Positions 32,601-56,301 are shown, numbered from the stretch's first letter. The stretch: DNA of 64,000 bases from an uncultured Dehalococcoidales bacterium (GCA_964499445.1 CAZCLE010000001.1:29615-93614); one strand, 5' to 3'. Made by a program: numbers and translations. The notes: a model not told the origin generated them from the letters alone.

Positions 32601-32735
32601 TCTCAGAATACCCCCATATAAATATGACTAGGTCTAATCTTACTATTCTAGACGTACATTGGTCAAATAACATTAGAGATTGCTTAGTAACCTATCCCCC
32701 TGACCCCCTTCCCTCAATAAAAGATTGTTTAACAA

Positions 32736-33014
32736 CCCCTCACCCTTTATCCCTCTCCCCTTATGAAGGGGAGAGGGAAGAGAAATTCTTAAAGGGGCTT
32801 TTTACCCCACAAAAATAAATTTTTGCGGGGACCCCGTATTCGCCCCTTTTAATCCCTTTGCTAAAAACTCTCAATAAGGGGGAGTGTAGGTAAGAGAGGG
32901 GCGAAGCCCCTCTCTAAAATCTCTTCCCAAATAGAGGTTTAAGGGGCGGAGCCCCTTCTATAAAAACTTCCCCTTCCCCTTGATAAGGGGAAGGGGATAA
33001 AGGGGATAGGGTTA
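32736..33014. repeat. Composite G-rich hairpin repeat element (MITE/REP-like) with inverted A-module ends and internal B hairpins
   Basis: Left end is CCCCTCACCCTTTATCCC + hairpin CCCTCTCCCCTT/AAGGGGAGAGGG. B hairpins are AGAGAGGGGC-GAA-GCCCCTCTCT (32893-32915) and AAGGGGC-GGA-GCCCCTT (32941-32957). Right end is hairpin CCCCTTCCCCTT/AAGGGGAAGGGG + ATAAAGGGGATAGGGTTA. An extra tail-only copy lies at 32689-32714. Confidence 0.7.
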
Positions 33015-33040
33015 CCTAATAAAAATCTAAGAGGGTGAGG

Positions 33041-34234
33041 TCAATAAACAATCTTATTAGCCCGGAAAGGAATCTTCATCGCCCCAATAGCCTTAGATAT
33101 TGCCTGATGTGCCAACAATTTCAATATCACCTCAGCATGCCAGTCAAAAGACAAATCTTCCTCTTTAAGCAAGGCCTCATCAATGCCGCTGGATTTTATT
33201 ATGTCAAATATCCGGTCAATCTGCCGGTCACTCAGACGCTCATAAAATTTCCGAGCCCGGTAGCCTCTCTTCAACTCACGCCCCAGCCTCACCTTCCACT
33301 CCCGCTCATAGTTAGCCAGACTCCTAGCCGTCAGGGCATCACTTGCCAGAGCCCGGTGCAAATTATTAGCCGCGATGTCAGCACCCAGTAGCCCGTAGTA
33401 GATACCGCCACCGGTGGTTGGCTTCACCTGCCCCGCCGCACTCCCCACCACTATCACTCTCTGCCCGTAGGTTCTAGCCAACGGCTTTAGTGGAATCCCG
33501 CCATAGCTCACCTCAGCCTCAGCCGAAACTATTTTCCCCTGAGCCAACAGGGACGACATTAACTTCCTCAGATAGTGCCCGGGATTAAGGCGCGATAACA
33601 ATCCCACCCGGGCTCTCGGCGATGAGGTCGGCACCAGCCAGGCAAAAAAGCCAGGAGCTATATCCTGACCAAAATAAACCTCAACCTCGTCCACCCCGGT
33701 GGTTTCCACCTCAGCCTGAGCTCCCATAACCAAATCGCCAACCTTGCCCAAACCCAACCCCTCAGCCAGTCTGGAGCCAAAGCCAGTGGCAATAACTACC
33801 GCTCTGGCGTCAAGGTTTAACTTCTCTCCCTGACGAGTTGCCTCAATCCTAACCCTATCCTCCCCAACCGCCACATTCCTGACCTGGCTACTTAAAACAT
33901 ATTCCACTCCCTTATCCTGAGCCCAATTGGCAATAGCCATATCAAAAGCAGCTCGGTCTACAACGCACGCCTGTGGTTCCTGCCTCCACACCCTGAGTAA
34001 CCGTCCTGAAGGTGAAAATAACCTGGCGCTATTTGCCCACTTCAAAATAACCCTGTCGTCAATACCAAAAGTGCTGACACACTCCCGACCAATAAGACCG
34101 GTACAGCAGACTTTCCCTCCCGGCCTTGTCTTCGCTTCCAGCACCACCACCCCGTATCCCATCCCCGCCAGCTTATAAGCGGTATAACTCCCGGCTGGTC
34201 CACCACCTATTACTGCCACATCATACAATTTCAC
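33041..34234 (-). CDS. Geranylgeranyl-reductase-family FAD-dependent oxidoreductase
   Basis: 397 aa. YDVAVIGGGPAGSYTAYKLA...VVVLE is the dinucleotide fold. VGSAAGQVKPTTGGGIYYG is typical of the GGR family. Confidence 0.8.
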   Translation of the reverse strand: MKLYDVAVIGGGPAGSYTAYKLAGMGYGVVVLEAKTRPGGKVCCTGLIGRECVSTFGIDDRVILKWANSARLFSPSGRLLRVWRQEPQACVVDRAAFDMAIANWAQDKGVEYVLSSQVRNVAVGEDRVRIEATRQGEKLNLDARAVVIATGFGSRLAEGLGLGKVGDLVMGAQAEVETTGVDEVEVYFGQDIAPGFFAWLVPTSSPRARVGLLSRLNPGHYLRKLMSSLLAQGKIVSAEAEVSYGGIPLKPLARTYGQRVIVVGSAAGQVKPTTGGGIYYGLLGADIAANNLHRALASDALTARSLANYEREWKVRLGRELKRGYRARKFYERLSDRQIDRIFDIIKSSGIDEALLKEEDLSFDWHAEVILKLLAHQAISKAIGAMKIPFRANKIVY

Positions 34235-34423
34235 TTCTCCACCTACCGGAACATTTTACTCCACCTTCATTCCCGACCCCAACTAACCCGTGAAAAAACA
34301 GTGAGAGGAAATTACTAAGACAGTGAGGAGAACAAATACCACGAACCAACGATAATAGAGCTTAAGCTGTATCCCAAAACCCTGCCCGAATTAAAGGCGC
34401 CACCCATACTTACTAGGATACTT

Positions 34424-35221
34424 TTAGCCGCGCAAAATCTCCAGGGCAACCTCAGCCGCTCGCTTCCCGGAAAGAAGCATGCCCCCGAAGATAGGTCCCA
34501 TCCTGGGGGCTCCAAAAACAGCATTAGCTGCCATGCCGGCAACAATCAGACCAGGATAGACCTCCTGGGTATTCTCTATTATTTGCTTTTCTCCCATCTC
34601 AGCCCACATCGGCTTCTCCCCCATTATTCTACCTGCCTTCGTCCTTAATTTGGCACCGAGCTTATTCACTACTATTTGGCAGATTTCGCAGGCATGCCCG
34701 GTAGCATCTATCACCATCTTCGCCCGCATGACCAAGGGGTCTACATGCAATCCAGCCAGCGGAACAGCACTCCAGTTCAACACCAAGCCGGTTACCCTAT
34801 CTTCCTCCCTGACCATCACATCCTCAATGCAAATCAAGTTGAATATCCTGGCTCCGGCCTTTATTGTCCGGGAACAGATAGTCGAGACGGCCTCCAGGGA
34901 ATCAGCAATATAGTAGTCGTTTTCATACTCTTTGGTGGCTACGTCAAACTCATCCAATAGCTTCTTTCCCTCTTCCTGCACCACGATACGATTGAACATC
35001 ATCCCTCCCCCGGGCATGCCGCCGCCAACACGGAGCTGCTTTTCAAATACCACCGTTTTCGCCCCCGCCTTTGCCAGATAATAAGCCGCCGTCATGCCGG
35101 CTGGCCCAGCCCCACCTATAGCCACGTCAACCTCCATAGCCTCGGTGAAGTCCTTCACAAAGCTTTCGACTATTGCCTTGGATATGGTTACCTCGTCGAG
35201 CATATTCCCTCCTGTTGCCAC
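34424..35221 (-). CDS. thi4: Thi4-family thiazole (ADP-thiazole) synthase
   Basis: 265 aa. [21 protein letters not shown]...VVFEK...GGG..GGGMMF is typical of archaeal/eukaryotic-type Thi4. It lies 24 nt downstream of thiC. Confidence 0.85.
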
Positions 35222-35245
35222 GTTACCCTTTTATGGTATCACCAG

Positions 35246-36541
35246 CTAGCACCTGGATGCTTTGACGCCCAAATACTTTTCCACCAACGCCATAGCACAG
35301 AACTCCCCACACATACTGCAGGCCTCTCCAGCCGAAGCATGCCTGCTGTGAACCTGGCGAGACCGCTCAGGGTTTAAGGACAGTTTAGCTTGCTCCGCCC
35401 AGTCAAGTTTCTTTCGCGCCACCGACATCTTCCTATCCCACTCCTCGGTACCCTTCACCCCTTTGACTATATCACCAGCATGGGCAGCAATGCGCGAGGC
35501 GATTACCCCCAGCTTTACATCCTCAGGGTCAGGCAGAGACAGGTGCTCGGCTGGGGTTACATAGCATAGAAAATCAGTACCGGCAGCGGCAGCGACAGCT
35601 CCACCGATAGCCCCGGTGATATGGTCATAGCCGGCAGCTACATCGGTCACCAGCGGACCCAGAACATAGAACGGAGCCCCCTTGCAGATAGACTTCTCTA
35701 AACGAACATTAGCCTCAATTTGATTCAAGGGCAGATGCCCCGGACCCTCAACCATTACCTGAACTCCAGCCTGTTGTGCCCGCGGCACCAGCTCCCCGAT
35801 AACAAGTAACTCCTCTACCTGAGCCCGGTCAGTAGCATCAGCCAGGCAACCAGGACGCATCCCGTCCCCAAGGCTCAGCGTCACGTCAAACTCCCGGGCT
35901 AACTCCAGCAAGCGGTCATAATATTCATAGAGCGGGTTTTCGCGCTCATTGTAGAGCATCCAGCCTATCAGAAAAGCACCCCCCCGAGATACCACATCAG
36001 CTACTCTTCCCTGCTGCTTAAGGCAGGCAATGGCTGACCGGGTTACGCCACAATGCACCGTTATGAAATCAACACCATCACGAATATGTTCTTCAATGGC
36101 GGCAAATAGGTCATCAACCGTCATCTTGACTATGGCGCCGTGTCTACTTATCGCCTCAATTCCGGCTTGATAAATAGGCACTGTCCCTATCGGTAAGGAG
36201 CTTGAGCCAATAATAGCCCGCCGGATAGCCGATATATCGCCGCCGGTGCTCAAATCCATAACCGTGTCTGCCCCGGAATCAATGGCAACCTTTAGCTTTT
36301 CCATCTCAGTATCAATATTGCCGAAATCAGAAGATGTCCCAATATTGGCATTGACTTTGGTAGACAGCCCCTGACCTATGCCACAAGGAATAAGCTTGGT
36401 GTGCTTAGTATTAGCTGGAATTACTATCGTCCCGCTAACCACACCCTGCCGGATAAACTCAGCTTCCACCCCCTCTTGCTTGGCTACCAAGCTCATCTGT
36501 ATTGAAACAATGCCTTTTCTGGCTAATTCTAATTGAGTCAT
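35246..36541 (-). CDS. thiC: Phosphomethylpyrimidine synthase ThiC
   Basis: Short-form ThiC with a C-terminal CSMCGEFCA cluster motif. I prefer start ATG 36541 ([17 protein letters not shown] upstream) over the track start at 36568. Confidence 0.9.
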
Positions 36542-36552
36542 ATCTGCCCCCT

Positions 36553-36697
36553 TAAAAACAAAAACCAAGGGCTACGGCTCTCATTACCAGACCCTTGGTC
36601 TAGGTTACCGCCGCTTCCCTACGCTCGCATTACCGAGATCAGGTTCACAGGGTTGGCATCAAAACACCTCTCAGCCTTTGAGCACCCCTAGCGGTTA
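36553..36697 (-). promoter_or_regulatory. TPP (THI-box) riboswitch with a terminator-type expression platform upstream of thiC-thi4
   Basis: The minus strand reads CTAGGGGTGCTCAAAGGCTGAGAGGTG...ACCCTGTGAACCTGATCTCGGTAATGCGAGCGTAGGGAAGCGG. This contains the conserved GGGGUGC, CUGAGA, ACCCU.UGAACCUGAUC, GGUAAUGC and GCGUAGGGA elements. The ACCAAGGG/CCCTTGGT hairpin (36564-36599) and TTTTTGTTTTT follow. Confidence 0.85.
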
Positions 36698-36767
36698 GCT
36701 ATAAAATTCTATTTTAAACATAGCACAAACTCTCCTGATATGCAAATGTGCCTTATTAATCTAGCTA

Positions 36768-36839
36768 CCTCACCCCCTTTATCCCCCTCTCCTTCAAAGG
36801 AGAGGGGGAAGGAGTAGGAAAGAGGGGCTTCGCCTCTCT
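36768..36839 (-). repeat. G-rich hairpin repeat, A module (inverted orientation) plus a degenerate B hairpin
   Basis: CCTCACCCCCTTTATCCCC + hairpin CCCCCTCTCCTT/AAGGAGAGGGGG, then AGAGGGGCTTCGCCTCTCT. Confidence 0.7.
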
Positions 36840-36923
36840 TTGACTCTTCAATAGAATTCCCTTTTTCCATATACCTAAATTAGTTCTAGAATACTTGACA
36901 AATAAGACAAATGGAGGTTTAAG

Positions 36924-37388
36924 TTGAAAAGAGGATTTATGGATTTCGCAGTAAATAGTATTATTCCAGCTTCTCCAGGGCAAACTGCACAGTGGATTGC
37001 AGAAGAAGCTCTGGCTCACATCAGCGACCTAAGCGATGCCCAAGACCCGGTAGCTTCTCTCGCAAATACATTAAGTAAGCAGGTTCAGACAGGGAAGGAA
37101 AGGCGTATTAGCAGAGAGCGAATTGGTGGTGTATACTGTTATTTCCCTGTATCTGGGCCATCTGTCTCAGACTCTAGTGAAGATATTGTTGCCCAGATTT
37201 CTCTATCTACGCAAGAATTGGAAGATATAGATAACCTTGTAGCTGTTGTAGGTAAGTTTGACAATAGAAGCAGCGCCATAAAATGGTTGGTTACGGAAGG
37301 TATTAAAGCTAACCGTGCTTACCTAGATAAGGTGGCGGATACACAAAACCAAATTGAGCGCCTAAAAAGAGAGGTAGCAACAGCTTAA
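36924..37388 (+). CDS. Hypothetical small protein, possibly DNA-binding (HARE-HTH-like N-terminus, ribbon-helix-helix-like C-terminus)
   Basis: 154 aa. It is bracketed by oppositely oriented repeat modules. ISLSTQELEDIDNLV...NRSSAIKWLVTEGI resembles a CopG/RHH pattern. This is a by-eye call only. Confidence 0.35.
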   Translation: MKRGFMDFAVNSIIPASPGQTAQWIAEEALAHISDLSDAQDPVASLANTLSKQVQTGKERRISRERIGGVYCYFPVSGPSVSDSSEDIVAQISLSTQELEDIDNLVAVVGKFDNRSSAIKWLVTEGIKANRAYLDKVADTQNQIERLKREVATA

Positions 37389-37408
37389 GGAGCAGCAATA
37401 AAGGGTTT

Positions 37409-37525
37409 AAGGGGCGAAGCCCCTGATATTCTTATATGGGGAGCCTAAGAGGGGGCGGAGCCCCCTCTTTAAAAATCCTCTCCCCTTCCCCTTACCAAGG
37501 GGAAGGGGATAAAGGGGATAGGGTT
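37409..37525 (+). repeat. G-rich hairpin repeat: two B hairpins plus an A module
   Basis: AAGGGGC-GAA-GCCCCT (37409-37424), AAGAGGGGGC-GGA-GCCCCCTCTT (37447-37469), then CCCCTTCCCCTT-acc-AAGGGGAAGGGG-ATAAAGGGGATAGGGTT (37482-37525). Confidence 0.75.
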
Positions 37526-37552
37526 GATAAACAATCTAAACAGTAGTAGAAT
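37524..37552 (+). promoter_or_regulatory. Sigma-70-like promoter candidate for pdxST, with its -35 overlapping the repeat terminus
   Basis: TTGATA (37524-37529), a 17-nt spacer, then TAGAAT (37547-37552). Confidence 0.45.
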
Positions 37553-37579
37553 ATTATAAACAAGGCTAAAGAGGAAAAT

Positions 37580-38461
37580 ATGGAAAGCGGGACATGGAAG
37601 GTTAAAACCGGGCTGGCTCAGATGCTAAAAGGCGGCGTAATTATGGATGTAATCAACGTCGAGCAGGCCAAGATTGCCCAGGAGTCCGGCGCCTGCGCAG
37701 TAATGGCACTGGAGAGGGTCCCGGCAGATATCAGAGCTACCGGGGGTGTAGCCCGCATGGCTGACCCAACGATTATTGAAGCTATTATGAAAGCAGTTTC
37801 TATACCGGTAATGGCTAAGTGCCGCATCGGTCACTTCGTGGAGGCTCAAGTACTGCAAGCCCTGGGCGTAGACTTCATAGATGAATCAGAAGTACTCACC
37901 CCGGCTGATGAAGCCCACCACGTCTGGAAGCACGAGTTTAAGGTTCCATTCGTCTGCGGCTGCCGCGACCTTGGAGAAGCCCTGCGCCGCATTGGCGAGG
38001 GAGCGGCTATGATTAGAACCAAAGGTGAAGCTGGCACCGGCAACATTGTGGAAGCGGTCAGGCATATGCGGGCAGTAACGGATGGCATCCGCAAACTGGT
38101 AAACAGCCCCCAGGATGAGCTAATGGCACTGGCTAAGGAAATGGGAGCCCCCTTTGAACTGGTAGAGGAGATACATAAAACCGGGAAACTGCCGGTAGTT
38201 AATTTTGCTGCTGGCGGAGTGGCTACCCCAGCCGATGCCGCCCTGATGATGCAGTTGGGTGCCGACGGTGTCTTCGTTGGCTCGGGTATCTTTAAGTCCA
38301 GCAACCCTGAGGTTAGAGCCAGAGCCATTGTCAAGGCAACTACTCACTTCCAGGACCCGGAAATCATTGCCGAGGTCTCCAAGAACCTGGGAGAAGCCAT
38401 GCCCGGACTGGATATAAAGCAAATCCCTACCGAGGAGCTACTGGCACCTAGAGGATGGTAA
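37580..38461 (+). CDS. pdxS: Pyridoxal 5'-phosphate synthase lyase subunit PdxS
   Basis: 293 aa. [14 protein letters not shown]...[26 protein letters not shown]...[10 protein letters not shown] are highly conserved PdxS blocks. Confidence 0.95.
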
Positions 38462-38462
38462 T

Positions 38463-39047
38463 ATGAGAATCGGTGTCCTTGCTTCGCAGGGAGCCTTTGC
38501 CGAGCATATAGCTATATTGCACCGCCTAGAAGTTGATACCATGCCCGTCCGTCTGCCTCACCAACTTACCCCATTGGACGGGCTAATCATTCCTGGCGGA
38601 GAAAGTACCTCTATCAGCCGGTTGATACTAGATTACAACCTGACAAATGAAATAAGAAATCTAGCTAAAAATGGTCTGCCGATACTGGGAACCTGTGCCG
38701 GTATGATACTGCTAGCCAAAGAAATTTCAGATTCGGACATAGAGCCTATAGGCGTAATGGACATAACCATCAGGCGTAACGCCTTTGGCCGACAAACGGA
38801 TAGCTTTGAGACTGACCTCTCCATACCCGTGCTGGGAGAAAAGCCCTTTCCCGGCGTATTCATCCGAGCACCCATAGTTGAGCAGACAGACAACGAAGTG
38901 GAAATACTGGCCAGGTTAGCTGATGGCACCAGCGTGGCTGCCCGACAAGGGAAACTACTAGCCTCCGCCTTTCACCCTGAGCTAACCAACGACCTGAGAT
39001 TTCACCGTTATTTTTTGGATATCGTAGCCGGAGACCGGCAAGTATAA
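38463..39047 (+). CDS. pdxT: Pyridoxal 5'-phosphate synthase glutaminase subunit PdxT
   Basis: 194 aa. IGVLASQGAF.EH...LIIPGGESTS...GTCAGMILLA...FHPE. Confidence 0.9.
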   Translation: MRIGVLASQGAFAEHIAILHRLEVDTMPVRLPHQLTPLDGLIIPGGESTSISRLILDYNLTNEIRNLAKNGLPILGTCAGMILLAKEISDSDIEPIGVMDITIRRNAFGRQTDSFETDLSIPVLGEKPFPGVFIRAPIVEQTDNEVEILARLADGTSVAARQGKLLASAFHPELTNDLRFHRYFLDIVAGDRQV

Positions 39048-39067
39048 CGCATACCCTGGGGGCACCT

Positions 39068-40582
39068 GTGCAAAAAGTAATCACCGATGACCTGGACGCT
39101 CTGCTCGACATTTTACCACCGCATATTCACCAGCCACTACGCCGACAAAAGGACATCAGCGAACTACTAGAGGTAGTCCTCGACCTGGGTCGCCCTCCTG
39201 AAGCTCGCTTTCCCCAGCGAGAAATGATTCTCGACCCCAAGGAAGTTGACGAGCCGGACATTGATTATGTCGCCTCTCGTATCAGCAGCTTCGGGGATGA
39301 CAACCGGGCGGGAATCGAGCGGACACTGCACCGCATCTCAGCCATTCGTAATCGCAAGGGGTGCATTGTTGGGCTTACCTGCCGTGTGGGCAGGGCTGTC
39401 TTCGGCACCATAAAAATTATTGAAGACCTTGTCCAATCAGGCAAAGGCATCCTGTTGCTGGGCCGTCCCGGGGTAGGCAAAACAACCATGCTCCGTGAGG
39501 TAGCCCGGGTGCTCGCCGACGACCTCAATAAACGGGTTATCATTGTTGACACCTCAAATGAAATTGCCGGTGACGGTGATATTCCCCACCCGGCTATTGG
39601 GCACGCCCGGCGAATGCAGGTAACCACCCCTACTATGCAGCACGCAGTAATGATTGAAGCCGTAGAAAACCACATGCCGGAGGTAATCGTTATCGATGAA
39701 ATCGGCACCGAGCTTGAAGCTCAAGCCGCCCGAACTATCGCTGAGCGTGGGGTGCAACTGGTCGGCACCGCCCACGGCAACACACTGGAAAACCTGATGA
39801 TGAACCCTACCCTGGCTGACCTTATTGGCGGTATCCAGACGGTAACCCTGGGCGATGAAGAGGCCAGGCGGAGGGGCACCCAGAAGTCCATACTGGAGCG
39901 CATGTCAATGCCTACCTTTAATATTGTCGTTGAAATTCAGGACTGGGACAGGGTAGCCATTCACCCTGATGTCAGCGAAGCCGTTGACGCCATCCTGCGG
40001 GGACAACCCATAGCTACTGAGATTCGCTGGCTGGATGATACCGGAGAGGTCAGAATAGAAAAGGAAATGCTAGCTACTTCTAATAAGCCTTCTAAGGACA
40101 AGCCACCGGTCAGGGAAGACAAGCACTATAAGCTTTACCTATTTGGCATAAACCGGGGGCGGGTGGAGCAGGTAGCCAGAGAGAGGCAGCTAACTCTGGA
40201 TACAGTTAACCACCTGAATGAGGCTAACCTGTTTGTAACCTCTAAGAGCTACTACCGGCGGAAGCCACAAAAGGTCAAAGATGCCGAAGCGGCTAACCTG
40301 CCCATCTACGTCCTCAAAAGTAACACCCCGCATCAAATCAGGCAGCTATTAAACACCATCCATCCCTCACCTAAAACCGACCGGTCAGACTCCTTCAAGC
40401 TTGCCCTTAATGAGGCGGAAGAAGCCGTGGAGCGGGTAAAAGGAGGGGAGGAGACAATAGAACTCAGCCCCCAGAGCGCCTATATCCGACGCCTCCAGCA
40501 CCTGATAGCGGAAAGAAATGCCCTAAGTTCCCAAAGCACGGGCAAAGACCCCAATAGACGGGTGAGGATTTATAAAGAGTAG
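39068..40582 (+). CDS. SpoIIIAA/Ycf45-like AAA ATPase with a C-terminal R3H nucleic-acid-binding domain
   Basis: 504 aa. GRPGVGKTTMLRE is Walker A and VIVIDEIGT is Walker B. The C-terminal LSPQSAYIRRLQHLIAE...STGKDPNRRVRIY matches the R3H pattern. Confidence 0.75.
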   Translation: MQKVITDDLDALLDILPPHIHQPLRRQKDISELLEVVLDLGRPPEARFPQREMILDPKEVDEPDIDYVASRISSFGDDNRAGIERTLHRISAIRNRKGCIVGLTCRVGRAVFGTIKIIEDLVQSGKGILLLGRPGVGKTTMLREVARVLADDLNKRVIIVDTSNEIAGDGDIPHPAIGHARRMQVTTPTMQHAVMIEAVENHMPEVIVIDEIGTELEAQAARTIAERGVQLVGTAHGNTLENLMMNPTLADLIGGIQTVTLGDEEARRRGTQKSILERMSMPTFNIVVEIQDWDRVAIHPDVSEAVDAILRGQPIATEIRWLDDTGEVRIEKEMLATSNKPSKDKPPVREDKHYKLYLFGINRGRVEQVARERQLTLDTVNHLNEANLFVTSKSYYRRKPQKVKDAEAANLPIYVLKSNTPHQIRQLLNTIHPSPKTDRSDSFKLALNEAEEAVERVKGGEETIELSPQSAYIRRLQHLIAERNALSSQSTGKDPNRRVRIYKE

Positions 40583-40609
40583 TGCATAGCTCAAGGAGGC
40601 TAACTGACT

Positions 40610-40900: not shown

Positions 40901-40904
40901 TGTT

Positions 40905-41111: not shown

Positions 41112-41215
41112 CCGTAGGATAGTCAATTTAGAATGTTGAGAAATATAAATTAAGACCGCCGAGAATTACAATGTCATTTATGGCTTTACTCAGCACCTTT
41201 GAGGATTAACCAACT

Positions 41216-42973: not shown

Positions 42974-42978
42974 GTTAT

Positions 42979-44022: not shown

Positions 44023-44049
44023 AGGAGAAGAAGGCTAAAGGAGAATTAA

Positions 44050-44127
44050 AGAGAGACAAAGCCTCTCTTATATAACCAAGGGCAAATTCCCCTTCGTAAG
44101 GGAAAGGGGATAAAGGGGATAGGGTTA
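44050..44127 (+). repeat. G-rich hairpin repeat (degenerate B + A module)
   Basis: AGAGAG-acaaagc-CTCTCT, then TTCCCCTT-cgt-AAGGGAAAGGGGATAAAGGGGATAGGGTTA. Confidence 0.65.
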
Positions 44128-44141
44128 CTTGACAAAACTCA

Positions 44142-44783
44142 ATGGGGGTAGGGCTAATAAATAGTCTTCAGAAACCAACCTTTACTGAAGAAAAACTGCT
44201 TGAGGCGCAGGGCTACCGGCTCATCGCTGGCATTGACGAGGCTGGGCGTGGTGCCCTGGCTGGTCCGGTGGCAGCCGCCGCCGTTATCCTACCCCACCCC
44301 CTAAAGGCTCCCTGGCTCAACCAGGTAAAAGACAGCAAGCAGTTGACCCCGACCCGACGCGAACTTTTGTTTCATAATATCCACGAAGTAGCTATCTCAA
44401 TAGGTATCGGCGTAGCTCACCACGACGTAATAGATGCTCAGGGTATAATCAGGGCGACACGGCTGGCGATGAAACTAGCCATAGACCGGCTGTCGCCACC
44501 GCCGGAATCTCTCCTCATAGACTATATGCTCCTCCCTGATGTTAACCTGCCTCAAAAAGGCATAACTAACGGTGATAGGCTATGCTTCTCAATTGCCTGT
44601 GCCTCCATCATAGCTAAAGTGGCTCGAGACCGCCTGATGGTAGAGCTTGACCAGATTTATCCCGGCTATGGATTGGCTCAACACAAGGGCTATGGCACCG
44701 AGGGGCATATGGCCTGTTTGCACCGACTGGGACCATCCTTCATCCACCGCCATTCATTCAAGCCAGTTAAGGACATGATTTAA
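44142..44783 (+). CDS. rnhB: Ribonuclease HII
   Basis: 213 aa. IAGIDEAGRGALAGPV, DSKQLT and ASIIAKV.RD motifs are present. The start is uncertain because the ATG lies right at the repeat edge. Confidence 0.85.
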   Translation: MGVGLINSLQKPTFTEEKLLEAQGYRLIAGIDEAGRGALAGPVAAAAVILPHPLKAPWLNQVKDSKQLTPTRRELLFHNIHEVAISIGIGVAHHDVIDAQGIIRATRLAMKLAIDRLSPPPESLLIDYMLLPDVNLPQKGITNGDRLCFSIACASIIAKVARDRLMVELDQIYPGYGLAQHKGYGTEGHMACLHRLGPSFIHRHSFKPVKDMI

Positions 44784-44810
44784 AGTCGTTTATGAAAGAG
44801 ATTTTTTATT

Positions 44811-44940
44811 AACCTCACCCCCTTAATCCCCCTCTCCTTCTCAAGGAGAGGGGGAAGAGACTTTAGAGAGGGGCGGAGCCCCTCTCTTACCTACACTCCC
44901 CCCTTCCCTTATTAAGGGAAGGGGGTCAGGGGGATAGGTT
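44811..44940. repeat. Complete 130-bp G-rich hairpin element (A-inverted, B, A)
   Basis: AACCTCACCCCCTTAATCCCC + CCCCCTCTCCTT/AAGGAGAGGGGG, then AGAGAGGGGC-GGA-GCCCCTCTCT (44865-44887), then CCCCCTTCCCTT-att-AAGGGAAGGGGG + TCAGGGGGATAGGTT. The termini are inverted repeats of each other. Confidence 0.75.
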
Positions 44941-44960
44941 GCTAAATGACCTCTTTGTGA

Positions 44961-45344: not shown

Positions 45345-45407
45345 AGATTCCCCAAGCTTTACTCCCTAACCTGGCTGTGCTAAAATTAGCCCTCGGGAAA
45401 TATAAGT

Positions 45408-47122: not shown

Positions 47123-47125
47123 ATA

Positions 47126-49809: not shown

Positions 49810-49969
49810 TATACACTCCTTCTATTTGACACGAAGCTATATTCTATCATTTAGCCAGGCTAACCACAAGAATTAAGGGCGGTTATGAAGAGTAGTTTGA
49901 AGGAGGGTGAGGATTTAACCCTTTGACATCTACAGTCAAAGCTGGTAGCTTTTATATGTTAATAAATAG

Positions 49970-50590
49970 ATGACGATAATCATTATCATTTTAATTGTAC
50001 TCTTCTTACTTGGTTTAGGCGGTGGAGCCGTCGCCTGGTTTATTTTTAGACACCGGCAAGCGGTTAAAAGTAAAGAGCCGACAAAAGAAACCGCCAAGGG
50101 GGGCGCCCTACCCTTCCACTGGAACTACATCATAGCGCCGCTCGCCATTCTTATCCTGTCTATAATTCTGACTGCCTACTTCTACCACCTGCTTCCCCAG
50201 GAGGTAGCCTATCACTTCCAACCCGATGGCTCACCTGATAGGTGGCTCAGCCGTGGCGCCGCTATCGTCTGGGCGGTAGCACCACAACTGTTCCTCACCC
50301 TGCTGGCCGGCGCCATTACCTGGGGAATAACCCGACTGAGTAGGCTGTCCGGGCAGACCGAGGGTACCTGGATAAAACCGGAAAGAGTATTATCACTCAT
50401 GGGCAATATTATTGCCCTGCCCCAAATCGTTCTCTGCTTTGCAATGCTCGACATTTTCAGCTACAATTCCTATCAAATGAACCTTATGTCCGTCTGGGTA
50501 TTCGCCCTTATTATTATGGTATTGGGGGGTATTATTCTGGGCATATTCTTCATCCAAGCCATCCGGCGGGCTTGGGCAACCACTCGATAG
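49970..50590 (+). CDS. Integral membrane protein (about 5 TM segments), family unknown (DUF1648-like?)
   Basis: 206 aa with several long hydrophobic segments. No catalytic motif seen. Confidence 0.4.
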   Translation: MTIIIIILIVLFLLGLGGGAVAWFIFRHRQAVKSKEPTKETAKGGALPFHWNYIIAPLAILILSIILTAYFYHLLPQEVAYHFQPDGSPDRWLSRGAAIVWAVAPQLFLTLLAGAITWGITRLSRLSGQTEGTWIKPERVLSLMGNIIALPQIVLCFAMLDIFSYNSYQMNLMSVWVFALIIMVLGGIILGIFFIQAIRRAWATTR

Positions 50591-50615
50591 CACCGCCGAA
50601 TAACAGCGTTAAGGA

Positions 50616-52007
50616 GTGATAGTAGTGACCGAACCGACACCAACCAAGGTTAGTATGGAAAAGATTGTCTCCCTCTGCCAGCGGCGGGGTTTCATCTTTC
50701 CCAGCAGCGAAATCTACGGCGGTCTGTCCAGTTGCTGGGACTATGGGCCTCTAGGGGTGGAACTGAAGCAGAATATTAAGCAAGCCTGGTGGCAAACGGA
50801 GGTTCAACAGCGCGATGACATGGTGGGTGTGGACACCAGTATCCTGATGCACCCTCAGACCTGGGCCGCCAGCGGTCACCTTGAGGGGTTTTCCGACCCC
50901 CTGGTTGAGTGTAAGGGCTGCCACTTGAGATGGCGCGCCGATGAACTAAAGGGCGATAGTTGCCCTTCCTGCGGCGGTGAACTAACCGACCCCCGCCTGT
51001 TTAATTTAATGTTCAAAACCTTTATGGGACCTGTCGAAGAAGAAGCCAGTGTAGTTTACCTGCGTCCCGAGACAGCCCAGGGTATGTTCGTTAACTTCCA
51101 AAATGTGGTTAATACCACCAGAAAGAGGTTGCCCTTCGGCATCGCCCAGATAGGTAAGTCCTTCCGCAACGAGATTACCACCGGTAACTTTATCTTCCGC
51201 AGTCGGGAATTTGAGCAGATGGAAATCGAATACTTTGTCAAGCCCGGAACCGACAAGGAATGGTTTGACTACTGGCTGGAGGAACGTTTCAACTGGTATG
51301 TGAAGTTAGGCATCAATAAAGAAAACTTGAAGCTACGCCAGCACATGAAACACGAACTGGCTCACTACGCCCTAGCCTGCTATGACATTGATTACCTGTT
51401 CCCTATGGGCTGGTCTGAGCTGGAAGGGATTGCCAACCGCGGTGACTTCGACCTTACTCAACATGCCAAATATAGCGGCAAGAGCCTGGACTACTTTGAT
51501 GAAGAGACCAAAGAGCACATTATGCCTTATATCATCGAGCCATCAGCCGGGGTAGACCGCTCTGCCCTGGCTTTCCTCTGCGATGCCTACGATGAAGAAC
51601 CAGACAAAGAAGAGATAAGGGTGCTCCTCCACCTCCACCCCAGTATAGCTCCAATTAAGGTAGCCGTATTGCCCTTAAGCCGACGGGAGAATCTGGTTAA
51701 GGTAGCCAAACAGATATATGCCGACCTGCGCCAGTGCTGGATGACAAGCTATGACGACGCCCAGAGCATTGGTCGCCGCTACCGACGCCAGGATGAGATT
51801 GGCACTCCATTCTGTATCACCGTTGACTTCCAATCGCTTGAAGATGAGCAGGTCACCATCCGCGAACGCGACTCTATGAACCAGATACGAGTCCCGATTA
51901 ACGAGCTGAAGACAACGCTAACCGCCAAGCTCAGCGGTGAACCGCTATTCGTCCTGCCACCGGGCGGGCAGATATGGAAAGTTGAAAGAGAGGGGGATAA
52001 GCTATGA
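50616..52007 (+). CDS. glyQS: Glycine--tRNA ligase (dimeric class II, GlyQS type)
   Basis: 463 aa. [40 protein letters not shown] and [14 protein letters not shown] are present. The real start is perhaps Met14 (50655). Confidence 0.95.
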
Positions 52008-52144
52008 AGTTAGAAAGAGTTATTTACTGCGGGGATAACCTCTACTGGATGACCCGGCTTCCTGATGAGTTTGTTGACCTGTGTTATATTAGGAAGCCTC
52101 AAATATTTTATAAAAAAGTCTCAAAATCGAGTAAAAAGACTTGA
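52004..52144 (+). pseudogene. N-terminal stump of an N4/N6 DNA methyltransferase gene, start-stop coupled (ATGA) to glyQS
   Basis: My translation is [29 protein letters not shown], then unrelated AT-rich sequence and a stop. The pattern GDNL..M..LPD..VDL.YIDPP(F/Y) is the usual N-terminus of beta-class amino-MTases. The DPPF/Y motif itself is missing. Confidence 0.5.
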
Positions 52145-52169
52145 CAAAATACACGGAAGCGTGTATCAT
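52141..52169 (+). promoter_or_regulatory. Sigma-70-like promoter candidate for the methyltransferase, with a palindrome in the spacer
   Basis: TTGACA (52141-52146), a 17-nt spacer containing ACACG-gaag-CGTGT, then TATCAT (52164-52169). Confidence 0.4.
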
Positions 52170-52242
52170 TATCTAAATGTCCATATAATTTTAAGAAGAC
52201 AAGGCTATCAGCCATTCATACAAATATTGTATAATAAGAAAT

Positions 52243-53580
52243 ATGATAACAAAAGAAGCTAAACAAAAAGCCGAATCTCAAATATTAAATTACAGCGGTA
52301 GATATTCGAAAAGAATAGAGTTTAATAAAGACTACGAAAAACTAGTCACTTTCGCACCAACTAAAAAAATGGGCATATATAACTGGTTTTCGTATAAGGA
52401 AGCATTTTCTAACATACTGGTTTACAAGCTAATAGAGTTATTTGAACTGAATAGTGGCGATTATTTGCTAGACCCATTCTGTGGGATAGGTACTACTCTA
52501 CTAGCAGCTAAGGAAAAAGGCATAAATGCTTACGGTATAGATATACTACCTTTATGCACATTTGTTACACAGGTCAAGATGAATGTGTGCAACTATGATA
52601 CAGGAAAGATGAGAGAGTATCTTGATCAGATCTTAGATAGCGACTTAGTGATAGATAGGAGCTTAGTTTTACCTGATATTAAGATAATCACAAAGGCATT
52701 TGATTCAAGTGATGGATTCCTTGAAATCTTGTCTTTCAAACGACTGATAGAGAACGTAGTGGAAGACCAACTGTATCGGAATTTGTTTACGCTTGGATTG
52801 CTATCAATAGTCGGAGAGTTGAGCAATACTAAGAAAGATGGTGCATTTTTAAGACTGGTTCAACACAAGCAACATAAGGACACAAAATCTCTTTTCAGAG
52901 CACAGATTGCAAAATACATTCTGGATGTTGATAACCTTAGTTCTGGCTTATTTGAGAATGACTTGCTTAGGAGTAACGTAGACAATAAAGTCTTTTGCAT
53001 GGATTCAAGAGGAATAGAGTTAGATCGATGTTTTCACGCTGTAATCACATCTCCACCGTATTTGAATCGCTATGACTATACCCGTACCTATGCTTTGGAA
53101 CTAGCTACAGAGTTCGTAACTAGCTTTCAAGAGTTGAAGACGATTAGATATAATACAATACGGTCTCATGTGGAAGCAAAGTTCGGAAAGAGTCAATTCG
53201 TTAAGTCAGTTATTCTAAGAGAGTGTTTGGCGACTCTATCAAATAGACAACTCAATAATCCCCAAATCCCAGAGATGATTTCTGGTTACTTCGAAGATAT
53301 GTACTTAGTACTTAGAACAATAAAACAATACCTATATGTAAATGGTAAAGTAGCTTTTGTTGTCGGAACAGTAAGATATAGTGGAGTGAATATTCCTGTG
53401 GACATCATACTAGCTGATATTGGATCTCAATTAGGATTCAAACTAGAAAAAATTATCATAACAAGAGTAAAAGGGAATAGTCAACAACAACGAAGGCAGT
53501 ATGATGATGACCCAAGCAGAGAAAGCATAGTTATACTGTCTATGCCACAGGATTCCTTAAACACCTCAACTTCTCGATAA
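52243..53580 (+). CDS. DNA amino-methyltransferase (N4-C or N6-A), with motif I before motif IV
   Basis: 445 aa. Motif I is LLDPFCGIGTTLLAA (aa about 75). Motif IV is VITSPPYLNRYDY (aa about 270). Confidence 0.8.
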   Translation: MITKEAKQKAESQILNYSGRYSKRIEFNKDYEKLVTFAPTKKMGIYNWFSYKEAFSNILVYKLIELFELNSGDYLLDPFCGIGTTLLAAKEKGINAYGIDILPLCTFVTQVKMNVCNYDTGKMREYLDQILDSDLVIDRSLVLPDIKIITKAFDSSDGFLEILSFKRLIENVVEDQLYRNLFTLGLLSIVGELSNTKKDGAFLRLVQHKQHKDTKSLFRAQIAKYILDVDNLSSGLFENDLLRSNVDNKVFCMDSRGIELDRCFHAVITSPPYLNRYDYTRTYALELATEFVTSFQELKTIRYNTIRSHVEAKFGKSQFVKSVILRECLATLSNRQLNNPQIPEMISGYFEDMYLVLRTIKQYLYVNGKVAFVVGTVRYSGVNIPVDIILADIGSQLGFKLEKIIITRVKGNSQQQRRQYDDDPSRESIVILSMPQDSLNTSTSR

Positions 53581-54802
53581 TCTCAGTCAAAGCATTATTG
53601 TCAATGACTTCGAAATTTTTATTCACCAATTCATGCCCATTAAGTATATAATCAGCACCTGCTATTTGTAGAATGTGTACGTATTTAAGGGGATATTTCT
53701 TTGGAAAATTCCAGTAACCATCAAGTATATAGATGCTTATATAATCTTTGCGATTAGAAATAAGCCCATTGGTGTCATCAATTGTTGATCTGTACAGAAT
53801 TGACCTACCTATCTGTTCTCTAGCCCTACTAGGCAGTGCTTTTGACGTATTAGTTGGCCCTCCGGCAGAGGACTTACACTGGATATAGACCCTTTTCTTA
53901 TGATTATCAGAATATAACAAGAAGTCTTCAGTAAAGCGAGTTGTCGTAAAGCCCAAATCATGTAAGACGCTATGGTGCACGGCAACACTTCTACCAAGTC
54001 CACCCTTATACCATATATTATTACTTTCTAGTATCATCTCTGTGATAGCTTCTAATACATTAAAATAATTTCTCTCTTGCCAGACTTTTTCATATTGACC
54101 ACTCTTGATGTAATCCCAGAAAATACTATCGATACCAACCTCCCCCATTTTTCTCAGAATACTACTTTGTATCTGATTAGGATATTGAGGAGCCGTCTTT
54201 TCAGCAAGTCTCAGAATAACTTGTGAATAGAACTCTTGCCTCAAATTTCTGCTACATACCCTAGAATCTTGACCAAGCAATTTCACCTCTGTTAATAACT
54301 TTTGCTCGTTTATCCAGAAATGCTTATTATTCAATTGTGATTTAAGGGCCATTGACATCTCTTGTGAGAAGCTCTTCCTTTCCACGTAGACAACCTTATC
54401 GAAGAATAGCTCAAAAACCTTGAGTACGTAAGGCGCCCATTTACTAATGTCACCACCTACAACTAGCACTATCCTCCTTTCTGGTTTTCTCAGTTTAAAT
54501 AAGTATAGTTCCGCTAGTTTCTGGTGCAGCTTATTTTCATTACTATGTCCAGGAATACGAGGATTTGAATGCGTAACTGAGATAAAGGTTTCGTAACCAT
54601 TTATTTCATCTATCTTAAAATCTACCTCTATATCTGCTCTACTGATATCTAGATATCTTTCTTTAATACGATGATAATAGTGTATACCTTCATTATTTAA
54701 AAAGTTACTGACAGCTATTTCTGCCTTCTTACCCCTCACTTGAGTATCTACAAGGGCACGTCTGGCAGCCAAGTATTGATTGTTGAAAACGTTATTCATC
54801 AT
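53540..54802 (-). CDS. Putative cognate restriction endonuclease (context-based)
   Basis: 420 aa, AT-rich. It is convergent with the MTase gene and overlaps its 3' end by 41 nt. A possible PD-(D/E)xK-like stretch is DISRADIEVDFK. No family recognised. Confidence 0.45.
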   Translation of the reverse strand: MMNNVFNNQYLAARRALVDTQVRGKKAEIAVSNFLNNEGIHYYHRIKERYLDISRADIEVDFKIDEINGYETFISVTHSNPRIPGHSNENKLHQKLAELYLFKLRKPERRIVLVVGGDISKWAPYVLKVFELFFDKVVYVERKSFSQEMSMALKSQLNNKHFWINEQKLLTEVKLLGQDSRVCSRNLRQEFYSQVILRLAEKTAPQYPNQIQSSILRKMGEVGIDSIFWDYIKSGQYEKVWQERNYFNVLEAITEMILESNNIWYKGGLGRSVAVHHSVLHDLGFTTTRFTEDFLLYSDNHKKRVYIQCKSSAGGPTNTSKALPSRAREQIGRSILYRSTIDDTNGLISNRKDYISIYILDGYWNFPKKYPLKYVHILQIAGADYILNGHELVNKNFEVIDNNALTEIIEKLRCLRNPVA

Positions 54803-54930
54803 ATCGATCCCAATGAAACTCTAGTCTTTAAGCATGCTTCTGTCAAGACCACAGTAAATCACTCCTGCCCCGGTTGGATGTCTAACTCAGTCAGGAATGG
54901 TATAATATGGGTCGGATTATCTATTCCGCA

Positions 54931-54954
54931 GGGGGATAAAGGGGGATAGGGCTA
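54931..54954 (+). repeat. Tail-only copy of the A repeat module, abutting the sbcD start codon
   Basis: GGGGGATAAAGGGGGATAGGGCTA is followed by CCTAATGAAAATC. Compare GGGGATAAAGGGGATAGGGTTACCTAATAAAAATC at 32994-33028. Confidence 0.65.
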
Positions 54955-54958
54955 CCTA

Positions 54959-56197
54959 ATGAAAATCCTCCACTTTGCCGACCTTCATCTCGGTGTGGAA
55001 AACTACGGGCGCATTGACCCGGCTACTGGGTTATCCACACGCCTCCTTGACTTCCTGTCTGCCCTAGACCAGGTAGTAGACTACGCCCTGGAAAACAGGG
55101 TAGACCTTATCCTCTTCTGCGGCGATGCCTATAAGAGCCGTGAGCCCAGCCAGACTCACCAGCGGGAGTTTGCCAAACGCATAAATCGTCTGTCCACCGC
55201 CGGCATCCCCGTCTTTCTCCTCATTGGCAACCACGACCTACCTAACGCTATAGGTCGGGCGACTACCACCGAAATCTTTGATACCCTGGCGGTGAAAAAT
55301 GTCTATGTCTCCAACCGCCCCGATGTTTACCGCATCCCAACCCCAAGCGGTACTATTCAAATAGTCTCCCTGCCCTGGCTAAGACGCAGTGCCCTATTAA
55401 GCAAAGAAGAAACTAAAAATCTTAACTTTGACCAGATTAACCAGAAGTTGCAGCAGGTGCTAACCAATATTATTGCTGCCAATATCCCCAAACTCGACCC
55501 CGGGCTGCCATCAATACTGGCGGCTCATGTCTGGGTCTCAGGGGCAAAAGTAGGCTCAGAGAAGTCAATGACCATCGGGCAAGAGCATGCCCTACTGCTA
55601 AGCAATGTTGCCCACCCTGCCTTTGACTATATCGCCCTGGGCCATATTCATAAGCACCAGGTTTTGAGCACTAACCCGCCGGTAGTCTATGCCGGCAGCC
55701 TGGAGCGGATAGATTTCGGCGAGGAAGAGGACGACAAGGGGTTCTATCTGGTAGAAATTGAGCCAGACAAGGAAACCGGCCAAAGGCAGGTCTCCTTTGA
55801 CTTCCACCAGATAACCGGGCGCCGTTTTCTCACCATTAACATCGGTATTGAGCCCCAGGACACCGACCCCACCTCAACTGTGCTCGGAACTATTGCCGAA
55901 CCAGAAGAAGGGATTAAGGATGCCATAGTCCGACTCCAAATCAGCCTGCCCGCAGAGATTAAAGGTCAGCTTAGGGATAATGACATCAGGAACGCCCTAA
56001 AAGAAGCTCACTACTTTACCATCGCCAAGGATATACAGCGAGAGACCCGCCTCAGACTGGGCAAGTGGACCGCTGAAGAGATAGCCCCCCTCGACGCCCT
56101 GAAAGCCTACCTGGAGTCAAAGAAGATACCCCCGGAACGAGCCAAGCTTCTGCTTGACTACGGCGAGAGGCTTATCCAAGAGCAGAGGACCAAATAG
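54959..56197 (+). CDS. sbcD: SbcD/Mre11-family nuclease
   Basis: 412 aa. MKILHFADLHLG, LFCGDAY, LIGNHD and the GHIH phosphoesterase motifs are present. Confidence 0.85.
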   Translation: MKILHFADLHLGVENYGRIDPATGLSTRLLDFLSALDQVVDYALENRVDLILFCGDAYKSREPSQTHQREFAKRINRLSTAGIPVFLLIGNHDLPNAIGRATTTEIFDTLAVKNVYVSNRPDVYRIPTPSGTIQIVSLPWLRRSALLSKEETKNLNFDQINQKLQQVLTNIIAANIPKLDPGLPSILAAHVWVSGAKVGSEKSMTIGQEHALLLSNVAHPAFDYIALGHIHKHQVLSTNPPVVYAGSLERIDFGEEEDDKGFYLVEIEPDKETGQRQVSFDFHQITGRRFLTINIGIEPQDTDPTSTVLGTIAEPEEGIKDAIVRLQISLPAEIKGQLRDNDIRNALKEAHYFTIAKDIQRETRLRLGKWTAEEIAPLDALKAYLESKKIPPERAKLLLDYGERLIQEQRTK

Positions 56198-56225
56198 GGA
56201 TAAAAGGTCTCTTGAAGGGGTGTCT

Positions 56226-56301
56226 AAGAGGGGCGAAGCCCCTCTTTTTAATATTCCTCCCCCTCTCCTTCAAAGGAGAGGGGGACACAGGGGGTGAGGT
56301 A
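56226..56301 (+). repeat. G-rich hairpin repeat (B + A module variant)
   Basis: AAGAGGGGC-GAA-GCCCCTCTT, then CCCCCTCTCCTT/AAGGAGAGGGGG + ACACAGGGGGTGAGGTA. Confidence 0.7.

Follow-up and report, generated by a model that had tools for sequence, protein, structure and literature searches.

Probable BoxC-type intergenic repeats with a candidate third strand in uncultured Dehalococcoidia and their phages

Repeat units in the window

The stretch of DNA analyzed here (64,000 nt; "the window") derives from an uncultured Dehalococcoidales bacterium (GCA_964499445.1 CAZCLE010000001.1:29615-93614) and carries, next to genes such as thiC, pdxS, mnmA and rnhB, a family of G-rich intergenic repeats composed of two hairpin modules, A and B. 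An initial annotation had announced at least eight sites of this family and listed seven. Reading the sequence at each of the seven sites showed that all of them hold the described modules. The division into two modules, the intergenic position, and the four quoted versions of the A stem, each internally complementary, were likewise correct. The element type, which had been considered not nameable, can be named by comparison with the published literature (PMC4666352) and with a copy from Escherichia coli: the repeats are probably of the BoxC/PIT/TMECO kind (PIT, potential intrastrand triplex), with the core of module A as a predicted class II former of purine-motif intrastrand triplexes.

Read along the G-rich strand, a unit consists of 5'-GGnGTyw, the B hairpin, a G-poor spacer, the pyrimidine arm, a loop, the purine arm, a second loop, a G-rich tail, and the terminus T-W-R-ATAAACAATCT(C)-3'. 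Hairpin B is 9-10 bp long and typically reads AAGAGGGGC-GAA-GCCCCTCTT (also given as AGAGGGGC-GAA-GCCCCTCT) around the core GGGGC-GAA-GCCCC. The loop of B is strand-specific, because the G-rich strand shows GNA 45 times and TNC 12 times. The spacer between B and A comprises 9-12 nt with 4% G, and hairpin A is a perfect stem of 12-14 bp formed by the pyrimidine and the purine arm, with a first loop of 2-3 nt in the general plan of the unit and 1-4 nt among all types, and a second loop of 3 nt.

A covariance model, which was built from 112 copies and run over the window with filters off, detected eight full units with E-values between 1e-16 and 1e-28. Several remnants accompany them, and all copies are intergenic and confined to 32.7-56.3 kb of the window. 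The sites are as follows.

32689-32716, (-): truncated A module of subfamily 3, of which a portion of the purine arm is left together with loop and tail (reverse complement AGGGAAGGGGGTCAGGGGGATAGGTT); weak model match at 32677-32707(-)
32722-32818, (-): full unit with a perfect hairpin, 66.4 bits, E 7e-19; A(-) at 32726-32778 with stem TCCCTCTCCCCTT/AAGGGGAGAGGGA and tail GGGTGAGGGGTT
32829-32921, (-): mosaic remnant, 27.9 bits, in which an inverted-repeat hairpin was found; B hairpin at 32893-32915, AGAGAGGGGC-GAA-GCCCCTCTCT, flanked by the subfamily-3 arm leftover AAGGGGGAGTGTAGGTAAG and a truncated subfamily-1 spacer
32934-33054, (+): full unit (model match 32934-33025, 81.3 bits, perfect hairpin) plus second tail; B' at 32939-32957, A(+) of subfamily 2 at 32969-33013; second tail and terminus GAGGGTGAGGT-CAATAAACAATCT (33031-33054) overlap the stop of the opposite-strand gene
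36754-36847, (-): full unit upstream of the thiC thiamine pyrophosphate (TPP) riboswitch, 89 bits; A(-) of subfamily 1 at 36768-36809, B at 36821-36839; beside it, at about 36858-36876, the decayed pyrimidine arm of a lost right-hand A
37400-37537, (+): extra B' hairpin (37410-37424) plus full unit (model match 37441-37537, 91.8 bits), inverted-repeat hairpins found; B at 37447-37469, A(+) of subfamily 2 at 37481-37525, terminus TTGATAAACAATCT up to 37537
44042-44167, (+): degenerate unit (model match 44042-44138, 58.6 bits) plus second tail; weak B at 44050-44069, A at 44081-44126 with decayed pyrimidine arm; second tail and terminus GGGGGTAGGGCTAATAAATAGTCT (44144-44167) supply the called ATG and first codons of rnhB
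44799-44952, both strands: complete composite of two full units (44799-44893(-) and 44859-44952(+); model matches 92.6 and 79.8 bits); the left terminus is followed by A(-) of subfamily 1 (44811-44855), a B common to both units (44865-44887) and A(+) of subfamily 3 (44899-44940), and the right terminus is TTGCTAAATGACCT; DNA fold -46.7 kcal/mol, z -8
54931-54954, (+): tail-only remnant GGGGGATAAAGGGGGATAGGGCTA, separated by 4 nt from the start codon of the gene downstream
56219-56313, (+): full unit with a perfect hairpin and the best model match (96.1 bits, E 3e-28); B at 56227-56245 followed by TTTTTAAT, A(+) of subfamily 1 at 56258-56299, terminus TAGATAAAAATC

A second tail such as that at 33031-33054 recurs in many loci. 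Searches made independently of the model agreed with this picture: a mechanical inverted-repeat search found seven perfect 13-bp hairpins of the A type (pyrimidine 5' arm, purine 3' arm) in the window, the 21-nt tail GGGGATAAAGGGGATAGGGTT occurred exactly three times (0 expected), B hairpin sites with up to 3 mismatches occurred four times (0.09 expected), and a degenerate pattern of arm plus tail matched seven times (no match in 100 shuffles). Outside the listed units, no model match above 9 bits was obtained anywhere in the window, including 1-32 kb and the part beyond 56.4 kb. Intergenic gaps of at least 80 nt number 12 between 1 and 32 kb, none of them occupied, and 12 between 32 and 57 kb, seven of them occupied. 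The previously noted absence of copies from the first 32 kb is therefore real and does not reflect a shortage of room. Two of the copy-free gaps in positions 1-32000 exceed 1 kb (14046-15108 and 25090-26266).

Compensatory changes and composite layout

The pattern used for scanning the genome collection specified only CCTT of the 5' arm of module A. Among the copies recovered, the A stems were perfectly complementary over 12 bp in 126 of 141, in five main versions. In the alignment of 112 copies, 95.5% of the cells were paired and double changes occurred in 13 of the 19 pairs (188 cells), a level reached by none of 500 shuffles; slid controls of the same alignment gave 55-77% pairing. All nine pairs of the B hairpin vary on both sides. 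The compensatory variation of the stems claimed by the initial annotation is thus real, and the repeat is neither limited to a few copies nor devoid of covariation beyond chance. The accompanying statement that structure is conserved rather than sequence went too far: the compensatory changes exist, but the stems fall into a few discrete subfamilies, each of which has a tail of its own and shows high conservation over many species.

Neighboring units are arranged in a highly regular way. We counted 49 pairs with tails facing outward, of which 23 share a single B, versus one close pair with tails facing inward, which confirms that the A modules form the outward-facing inverted ends of complete copies. 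Because neighbors are so overwhelmingly oriented tails-outward, the complete element is A(-)-B-A(+), about 150 bp long, as at 44799-44952. Its ends are made up of the inverted tails plus AGATTGTTTA and TAAACAATCT, and the two A modules usually belong to different subfamilies. Erosion or rearrangement of composites best accounts for the single units, the tail-only remnant at 54931-54954 and the mosaic at 32689-33054.

The tail as a candidate third strand

The initial annotation had included the tail in module A as a G-rich sequence. It is present as described, but this account is incomplete, because the tail, a potential third strand, mirrors the purine arm of A and changes in concert with it: G stands opposite G, and A opposite A or T. 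Four examples follow, given as reversed purine arm, tail, and compatible positions.

GGGGGAGAGGAA, GGGGGTGAGGTA, 12/12
GGGGGAGAGGGAA, GGGGGTGAGGGTT, 13/13
GGGGAAGGGGAA, GGGGATGGGGTT, 12/12
GGGAGAGGGGAA, GGGTGAGGGGTT, 12/12 (window copy at 32726)

When 16 distinct arms were compared with their tails, reversed arm and tail agreed under the purine-motif code at 175 of 199 positions. When tails were shuffled among arms 20000 times, agreement averaged 155 and never exceeded 171 of 199 positions. Shifting the register by one position reduced the match to 65-68%, and direct (non-mirror) alignment to 50%. A second scan, which selected only perfect pyrimidine-to-purine hairpins and ignored the tail, retrieved at least 10 arm variants with compatible third strands (12/12 to 14/14) and a second loop that is constantly 3 nt long once the closing T-A pair is counted. 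Even rare arms come with compatible tails, for example AGAGGGAGAGGAA with AGAGGGTGAGGTT. A templated mutational process would not be expected to yield such mirror copies.

The obvious structural meaning of this mirror code would be an antiparallel purine-motif triple helix (G·G-C, A·A-T and T·A-T triads). The class II order of pyrimidine arm, purine arm and reverse-Hoogsteen strand is found in all eight full units of the window and in about 150 locus copies. With 12-14 triads and agreement of 11/12 to 14/14 in the commonest types, the modules also lie within the limits of the ITxF definition (PMC4666352; 6-15 triads, at most 1 mismatch, loops of 1-6 nt). Pairing of the tail with the spacer located 5' of the pyrimidine arm was considered as well and was rejected, the duplex energy of the real spacers (-6.64) being no better than that of shuffled ones (-6.88).

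The G-runs of arm and tail could also be explained by a switch between the hairpin and a G-quadruplex, since purine arm and tail together offer four of them. Subfamily 2 has this appearance (GGGG-AA-GGGG-ATAAA-GGGG-ATA-GGG), with a canonical motif in 39 of 40 such copies. Across all modules, however, the motif (four G-runs of at least 3, loops of 1-7) is present in only 56 of 156 and in four of the eight window units, and all 66 copies of the commonest subfamily lack it. A quadruplex would, moreover, require no mirroring of the A and T positions of the arm, and it would have to compete with a perfect hairpin of 12-13 bp. We regard this explanation as largely refuted and extremely improbable.

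Occurrence in genomes and phages

We scanned 185,579 species-representative genomes with the repeat pattern; the locus counts reported here rest on stretches of about 8 kb, together about 0.9 Mb. The pattern was found in at least 118 stretches, and among the matches listed the great majority are metagenome-assembled genomes (MAGs) of Dehalococcoidia/Dehalococcoidales. Relatives of the RNase HII encoded in the window share 76-90% identity with it, and where their sources give a name, it is Dehalococcoidia.

Also among the matches listed are records titled with other phyla (delta proteobacterium, Ignavibacteria, Nomurabacteria, WOR-1, Leptospirales and cyanobacteria; labels unverified). One MAG titled "uncultured delta proteobacterium MFD04408.bin.1.96" accounts for four loci (L017, L031, L076 and L081), and further loci with such titles are L015/L027, L060/L072, L061 and L083/L084, these labels being unverified too. 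Some of the copies in these records are canonical B-A units and others consist of hairpin and tail only; several of them lack B and resemble a wider class of this motif.

The pattern also occurred in 20 IMG/VR contigs (L129-L148), most of which represent one group of tailed phages sharing portal, major head and other structural genes. A prophage-like stretch (L122) came from a contig of the genome collection. The phages carry 1-5 canonical B-A units each, at varying intergenic spots of the structural module. Of the phage units, 31 are co-directional with the genes and five are not, the latter being partners within composites.

Gene context and orientation

Considering all units of the host loci, 47 lie co-directionally and 31 anti-directionally in tandem regions, 40 in divergent and 12 in convergent regions; the background comprises 230 gaps in tandem, 90 in divergent and 54 in convergent arrangement. 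Relative to genes, there is no strong orientation bias overall: host composites are evenly split (19 versus 19), whereas single units favor the coding strand (35 versus 18, p = 0.03). A replication-strand rule like that of the IS200 insertion sequence or of repetitive extragenic palindromic (REP) sequences was rejected, the single units of one locus lying 26 times on the opposite and 20 times on the same strand.

The bias of the single units would fit an element that acts in RNA, with the two hairpins serving as a terminator, a barrier to 3' exonucleases or a processing site and with the tail serving as the ribosome-binding site of the next gene. The preference for the coding strand recurs in the phages (31 versus 5), units are oriented toward a gene start 87 times versus 43, B can be followed by a T-rich stretch (for example 56246-56255), one B' resembles a terminator, and in several phage contigs the tail places GGTGAGG 5 nt before an ATG. 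Yet the distribution among divergent (40, background 90) and convergent regions (12, background 54) is the opposite of that of terminators, and composites are symmetric without orientation bias. The mirror covariation has no explanation at the RNA level, because RNA is stated to form no purine-motif triplexes (PMC4666352), and earlier work found neither promoter nor terminator activity for E. coli PIT elements, which blocked polymerase only in vitro (PMC4666352). No repeat matched an Rfam family at gathering scores. An action in RNA is thus unlikely in our view. The narrower role as a terminator was not supported, since units are enriched in divergent and depleted in convergent regions and only one B' was flagged by a terminator scan.

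Contacts with gene expression signals do occur. Upstream of pdxS, the best sigma-70-like site of the region (TTGATA-17 nt-TAGAAT, 37524-37552(+)) has a -35 hexamer that coincides with the junction of repeat tail and terminus, and this site is conserved in the related locus L049. Although the terminus provides a -35-like hexamer, a general role as an outward promoter beyond this one case was rejected, -10 boxes at the right spacing following 8 of 94 termini compared to a background of 6.5%. The position near promoters, with the conserved pdxS -35 box overlapping a terminus, would agree with a mosaic of protein-binding sites comparable to bacterial interspersed mosaic elements (BIMEs), recognized by a nucleoid protein, gyrase or a regulator, as would the mosaic clusters (e.g., 32689-33054) and the strong conservation of the core modules at orthologous sites. 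However, no candidate protein was identified, the -10 boxes past the termini are not enriched in general, and a dimeric protein would be expected to select for inverted and not for mirror symmetry. We therefore consider such a protein-binding mosaic very unlikely. The side effects of the repeats on genes, such as the -35 box, Shine-Dalgarno-like tails, and new start or stop codons, look incidental.

Turnover at orthologous sites

The junctions of the rnhB region were compared in six relatives (L123-L128). The rnhB/UPF0102 junction is empty in L124, L127 and L128, where the two genes overlap by ATGA. In the window it holds the 154-bp composite, to the right of which the ancestral last rnhB codons (ATAGAGAAATGA) are still readable. 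L126 carries a composite at the same point in the opposite orientation, with ATA on both sides. Only the short remnant GTCATTTAAAATCT is present in L123, the closest relative (90% identity), and a remnant like it lies to the left of the composite in the window. The unit at the mnmA/rnhB junction is old: it is present in L123, L124 and L126, reduced to tail and terminus in L125, and degenerate in the window, and the L123 copy shows a compensated pair change (CTCCTTCCCCTT/AAGGGGAAGGAG).

The called start and first nine codons of rnhB in the window (ATGGGGGTAGGGCTAATAAATAGTCTT, 44142-44170) are the second tail of the repeat plus its terminus; in L126, rnhB begins at a more downstream ATG, which is absent from the window. 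The called mnmA and rnhB genes of L124 (1950-2020) both run into the repeat unit and leave a "gap" of 19 nt, so gene callers can be misled by the repeats as to where genes end.

At the site upstream of thiC, the 42-nt A module is 100% identical between the window and L080 (ThiC 83% identical), while the spacer has diverged. L080 has a full composite; in the window, the right-hand A has lost its purine arm and tail and retains a decayed pyrimidine arm. The B hairpin of this site (window 36821-36839, L080 about 7009-7029) has kept its stem but not the orientation of its loop, which is TTC in one and GAA in the other; inversion or conversion at a palindrome would be expected to leave such a flip. 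The TPP riboswitch upstream of thiC (Rfam RF00059, 72 bits) is located at 36599-36699(-). On that strand, a distance of about 55 nt separates it from the B-A unit farther upstream, and L080 has kept riboswitch and unit alike. Upstream of pdxS, the window carries subfamily 2 and L049 subfamily 1.

Upstream of the gene at 54959, where the window has only a tail, L036 has a full B-A unit. A stretch of low GC content precedes this site in the window (52008-54802; 0.41 versus about 0.50 elsewhere). It contains an N6_N4 methyltransferase gene (52243-53580), a familyless open reading frame (ORF) of 420 aa on the minus strand (53540-54802), and an ORF of 46 codons (52005-52145) that resembles, on visual inspection, the N-terminal part of a DNA methyltransferase. 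L036 lacks the low-GC insertion and has the full repeat unit there. Judged from this comparison, the low-GC island seems to have landed in or beside a repeat element.

The near-identical strains L001-L004 showed no informative polymorphism at the elements. Bases 1-76 of L002 are Illumina/Nextera adapter (..CAAGCAGAAGACGGCATACGAGAT..GTCTCGTGGGCTCGGAGATGTGTATAAGAGACAG), an assembly artefact, and L002 starts at window position 37553, about 15 nt past the unit at 37441-37537.

Gain, loss, inversion and decay of this kind are typical of a mobile or recombination-prone repeat and agree with the instability reported for BoxC. They could also be explained by an ordinary MITE (a miniature transposable element with inverted repeats), that is, an element derived by deletion from an insertion sequence (IS) and mobilized in trans by a DDE transposase acting on the terminal inverted repeats AGATTGTTTA....TAAACAATCT. 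The conserved, inverted termini, the tails-outward layout, the presence, absence and opposite orientation of copies at orthologous sites, the ATA on both sides of the L126 element, and the copies in phage genomes are all compatible with a MITE. In contrast, no transposase was found among the ORFs next to or between units or among recurrent protein clusters (about 0.9 Mb of loci), and hence none with ends matching the A tail, for which the initial annotation had advised a search. The ORFs enclosed by unit pairs are housekeeping genes or encode an HNH protein, and the recurrent protein clusters are phage structural genes; the two sets together comprised HisRS-like, HNH, GreA, methyltransferase and phage structural proteins. 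The ATA in L126 is the only possible target duplication (3 bp); its boundaries are uncertain, and the window copy at that junction has extra remnant sequence. Furthermore, A modules are perfectly kept at old orthologous sites while their spacers diverge, which is unusual for dead MITEs. The MITE-like nature claimed earlier thus holds for the terminal inverted repeats but finds no transposase and one doubtful target duplication, and an ordinary MITE appears quite unlikely.

Proposed mechanism and implications

Our preferred reading is that of a DNA-level element whose G-rich strand would fold when it is unpaired. The strand could be exposed as the non-template strand during transcription, at the replication fork, or in an intermediate of recombination or transposition; the coding-strand bias of single units hints at the non-template strand. 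Once unpaired, the pyrimidine and purine arms would zip into a hairpin of 12-14 bp. After the 3-nt loop, the tail would turn back into the major groove, run antiparallel to the purine arm and form the G·G-C, A·A-T and T·A-T triads, and module B would form a mini-hairpin with a GNA loop on the same strand. Two B-A half-elements joined tails-outward would give the composite of about 150 bp, resembling REPINs and BIMEs, with conserved termini (..TAAACAATCT). The family would represent non-autonomous, recombination-prone DNA whose copies are gained, lost, inverted and eroded and have entered phage genomes. The anatomy, the covariation of stems and third strand, the turnover, and the similarity to E. 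coli BoxC are seen in the sequences themselves; triplex formation in cells and the way in which copies spread are inferred.

If this is correct, the intrastrand triplex itself may be under selection in cells. The concerted change of three strands in at least 10 arm variants would then be the first comparative evidence of such selection, a possibility that we put forward tentatively. Several points weigh against the proposed mechanism. Since the subfamilies share descent, independent cases of covariation are modest in number (about 7-10). The two tails of a composite can instead form Watson-Crick pairs between themselves and close a multi-branched fold, and the tail may partly double as a terminal inverted repeat; such pairing leaves unexplained why each tail mirrors its own arm. 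The folding tool, ViennaRNA, handles Watson-Crick pairs only, so the triplex is proposed here from the sequence. The coding-strand bias of single units (35/18 in hosts, 31/5 in phages) would equally fit a role in RNA, and the way of spreading has neither a transposase in the analyzed loci nor a clear target duplication to point to. For the E. coli motif, neither a triplex in duplex DNA nor an in vivo footprint was seen (PMC4666352).

The repeats occupy much of the intergenic space in these uncultured Dehalococcoidia, where they supply start codons, stop codons, sequences resembling ribosome-binding sites, and a -35 box. It is plausible that they also cause assembly breaks, and the copies of the phage group could serve as a marker for linking phages to hosts. 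To our knowledge, intrastrand-triplex repeats (BoxC/PIT/TMECO) have been known since the 1990s with no function assigned to them and no in vivo proof of the triplex. E. coli BoxC could never show three-strand covariation, because it is nearly invariant and self-mirror-symmetric. The asymmetric arms of the subfamilies described here separate a mirror relation of the tail from a direct one and make three-strand covariation countable, and the question of selection on the triplex becomes testable with genomes and a handful of oligonucleotides. This covariation is the most interesting residue of the analysis and could bear on the in vivo relevance of triplexes. If the proposed reading is true, hosts and phages would have in common DNA-level structured elements whose function is tied to a single-stranded, G-rich strand.

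Comparison with known repeats

In the window, Rfam searches at gathering scores returned only the TPP riboswitch and tRNA and no match to the repeats, for which permissive E-values gave sub-threshold generic hairpins (miRNA-like; GA-cis at 20-21 bits versus 34.7). A literature search for REP, MITE, hairpin or intergenic repeats of Dehalococcoid* found none.

The family shares with REP, BIME and REPIN elements the character of GC-rich extragenic palindromes in high copy number, the mosaic clusters, the singlets as products of decay, the inverted doublets that fold into a long hairpin, and the compensatory stem variants among classes. It differs in that the GTAG or CGTC tag is absent from most Dehalococcoidia copies (the consensus 5' of B being GGnGTyw, with CGTC in about 8 of 112 copies, ~7%, and GTAG rare), and in that the third-strand tail has no REP counterpart. 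No REP-associated tyrosine transposase (RAYT; IS200/IS605-like Y1 transposase) was present among the ORFs near units, a result that covers the 8-kb loci and not whole genomes. DNA mini-hairpins of the d(GCGAAGC) type were reportedly described by Hirao and co-workers; the loop of B is likewise mostly GNA on the G-rich strand, but its stem measures 9-10 bp and not 2 bp. As in H-DNA, purine arm and tail form a homopurine-rich mirror repeat under the same triad code. Unlike in H-DNA, an adjacent inverted repeat provides the Watson-Crick partner on the same strand, so that a single strand would fold alone and no supercoiled duplex would be needed.

The closest known system is BoxC/PIT/TMECO of E. 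coli, described by Hoyne et al. (2000) and Holder et al. (2015; PMC4666352). Of the four classes of intrastrand triplexes, class II has the order pyrimidine arm, purine arm, reverse-Hoogsteen strand, with an N3 second loop in BoxC (PMC4666352). The E. coli motif follows the pattern CCCTCNCCC N3-6 GGGNGAGGG N3 GGGNGAGGG and forms a stable single-strand triplex of 9 triads in vitro, as shown by circular dichroism (CD) and nuclear magnetic resonance (NMR). It is always intergenic, without strand bias and commoner upstream than downstream of ORFs, occurs at times in inverted pairs, invariably with one copy of type A and one of type B, and is linked to local deletions and rearrangements (PMC4666352).

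A 37-mer derived from this pattern was present in 5409 of 5426 complete E. coli genomes, at a median of 16 places per genome. The copy of strain ATCC 8739 is a tails-outward pair, the left half of which reads GCCCCTCACCC-TAA-CCCTCTCCCC-aaa-GGGGCGAGGGG and is followed by a spacer and the right half, CTCCCTCTCCC-tgt-GGGAGAGGG-ttg-GGGTGAGGGC. Its 10-nt blocks CCCCTCACCC and CCCTCTCCCC are identical to blocks within 32728-32762 of the window, in the unit at 32722-32818, which is the window copy closest to E. coli BoxC. The strict published TMECO pattern had no match in the window and one in the loci. Its failure in the window is due to extended stems and a different way of counting loops; with relaxed loops the pattern matched 14 times, at 32738-32778(-) of the window and in 13 locus copies. 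A blastn search of the composite against E. coli genomes gave no match. As far as the sequences tell, the likeness between the E. coli and Dehalococcoidia repeats may equally stem from shared ancestry or from convergence under the triad code.

Both repeats have the class II layout, the core words CCCTCTCC, GGAGAGGG and GGGTGAGG, a strictly intergenic position that is more often upstream of ORFs, partial deletions, and inverted pairs of two different types with tails outward. Those of the Dehalococcoidia have stems of 12-14 triads compared to 9 in E. coli, several co-varying subfamilies where E. coli has one near-invariant consensus, an additional B mini-hairpin with its own covariation, and conserved termini (..TAAACAATCT). 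They reside in uncultured Dehalococcoidia and also in phages. The initial annotation had allowed for a match to a known family; this match has come true with the BoxC kind, and the observation itself stands. The repeats would thus constitute an abundant new family in uncultured Dehalococcoidia and their phages, belonging to a kind of repeat that is itself already known.

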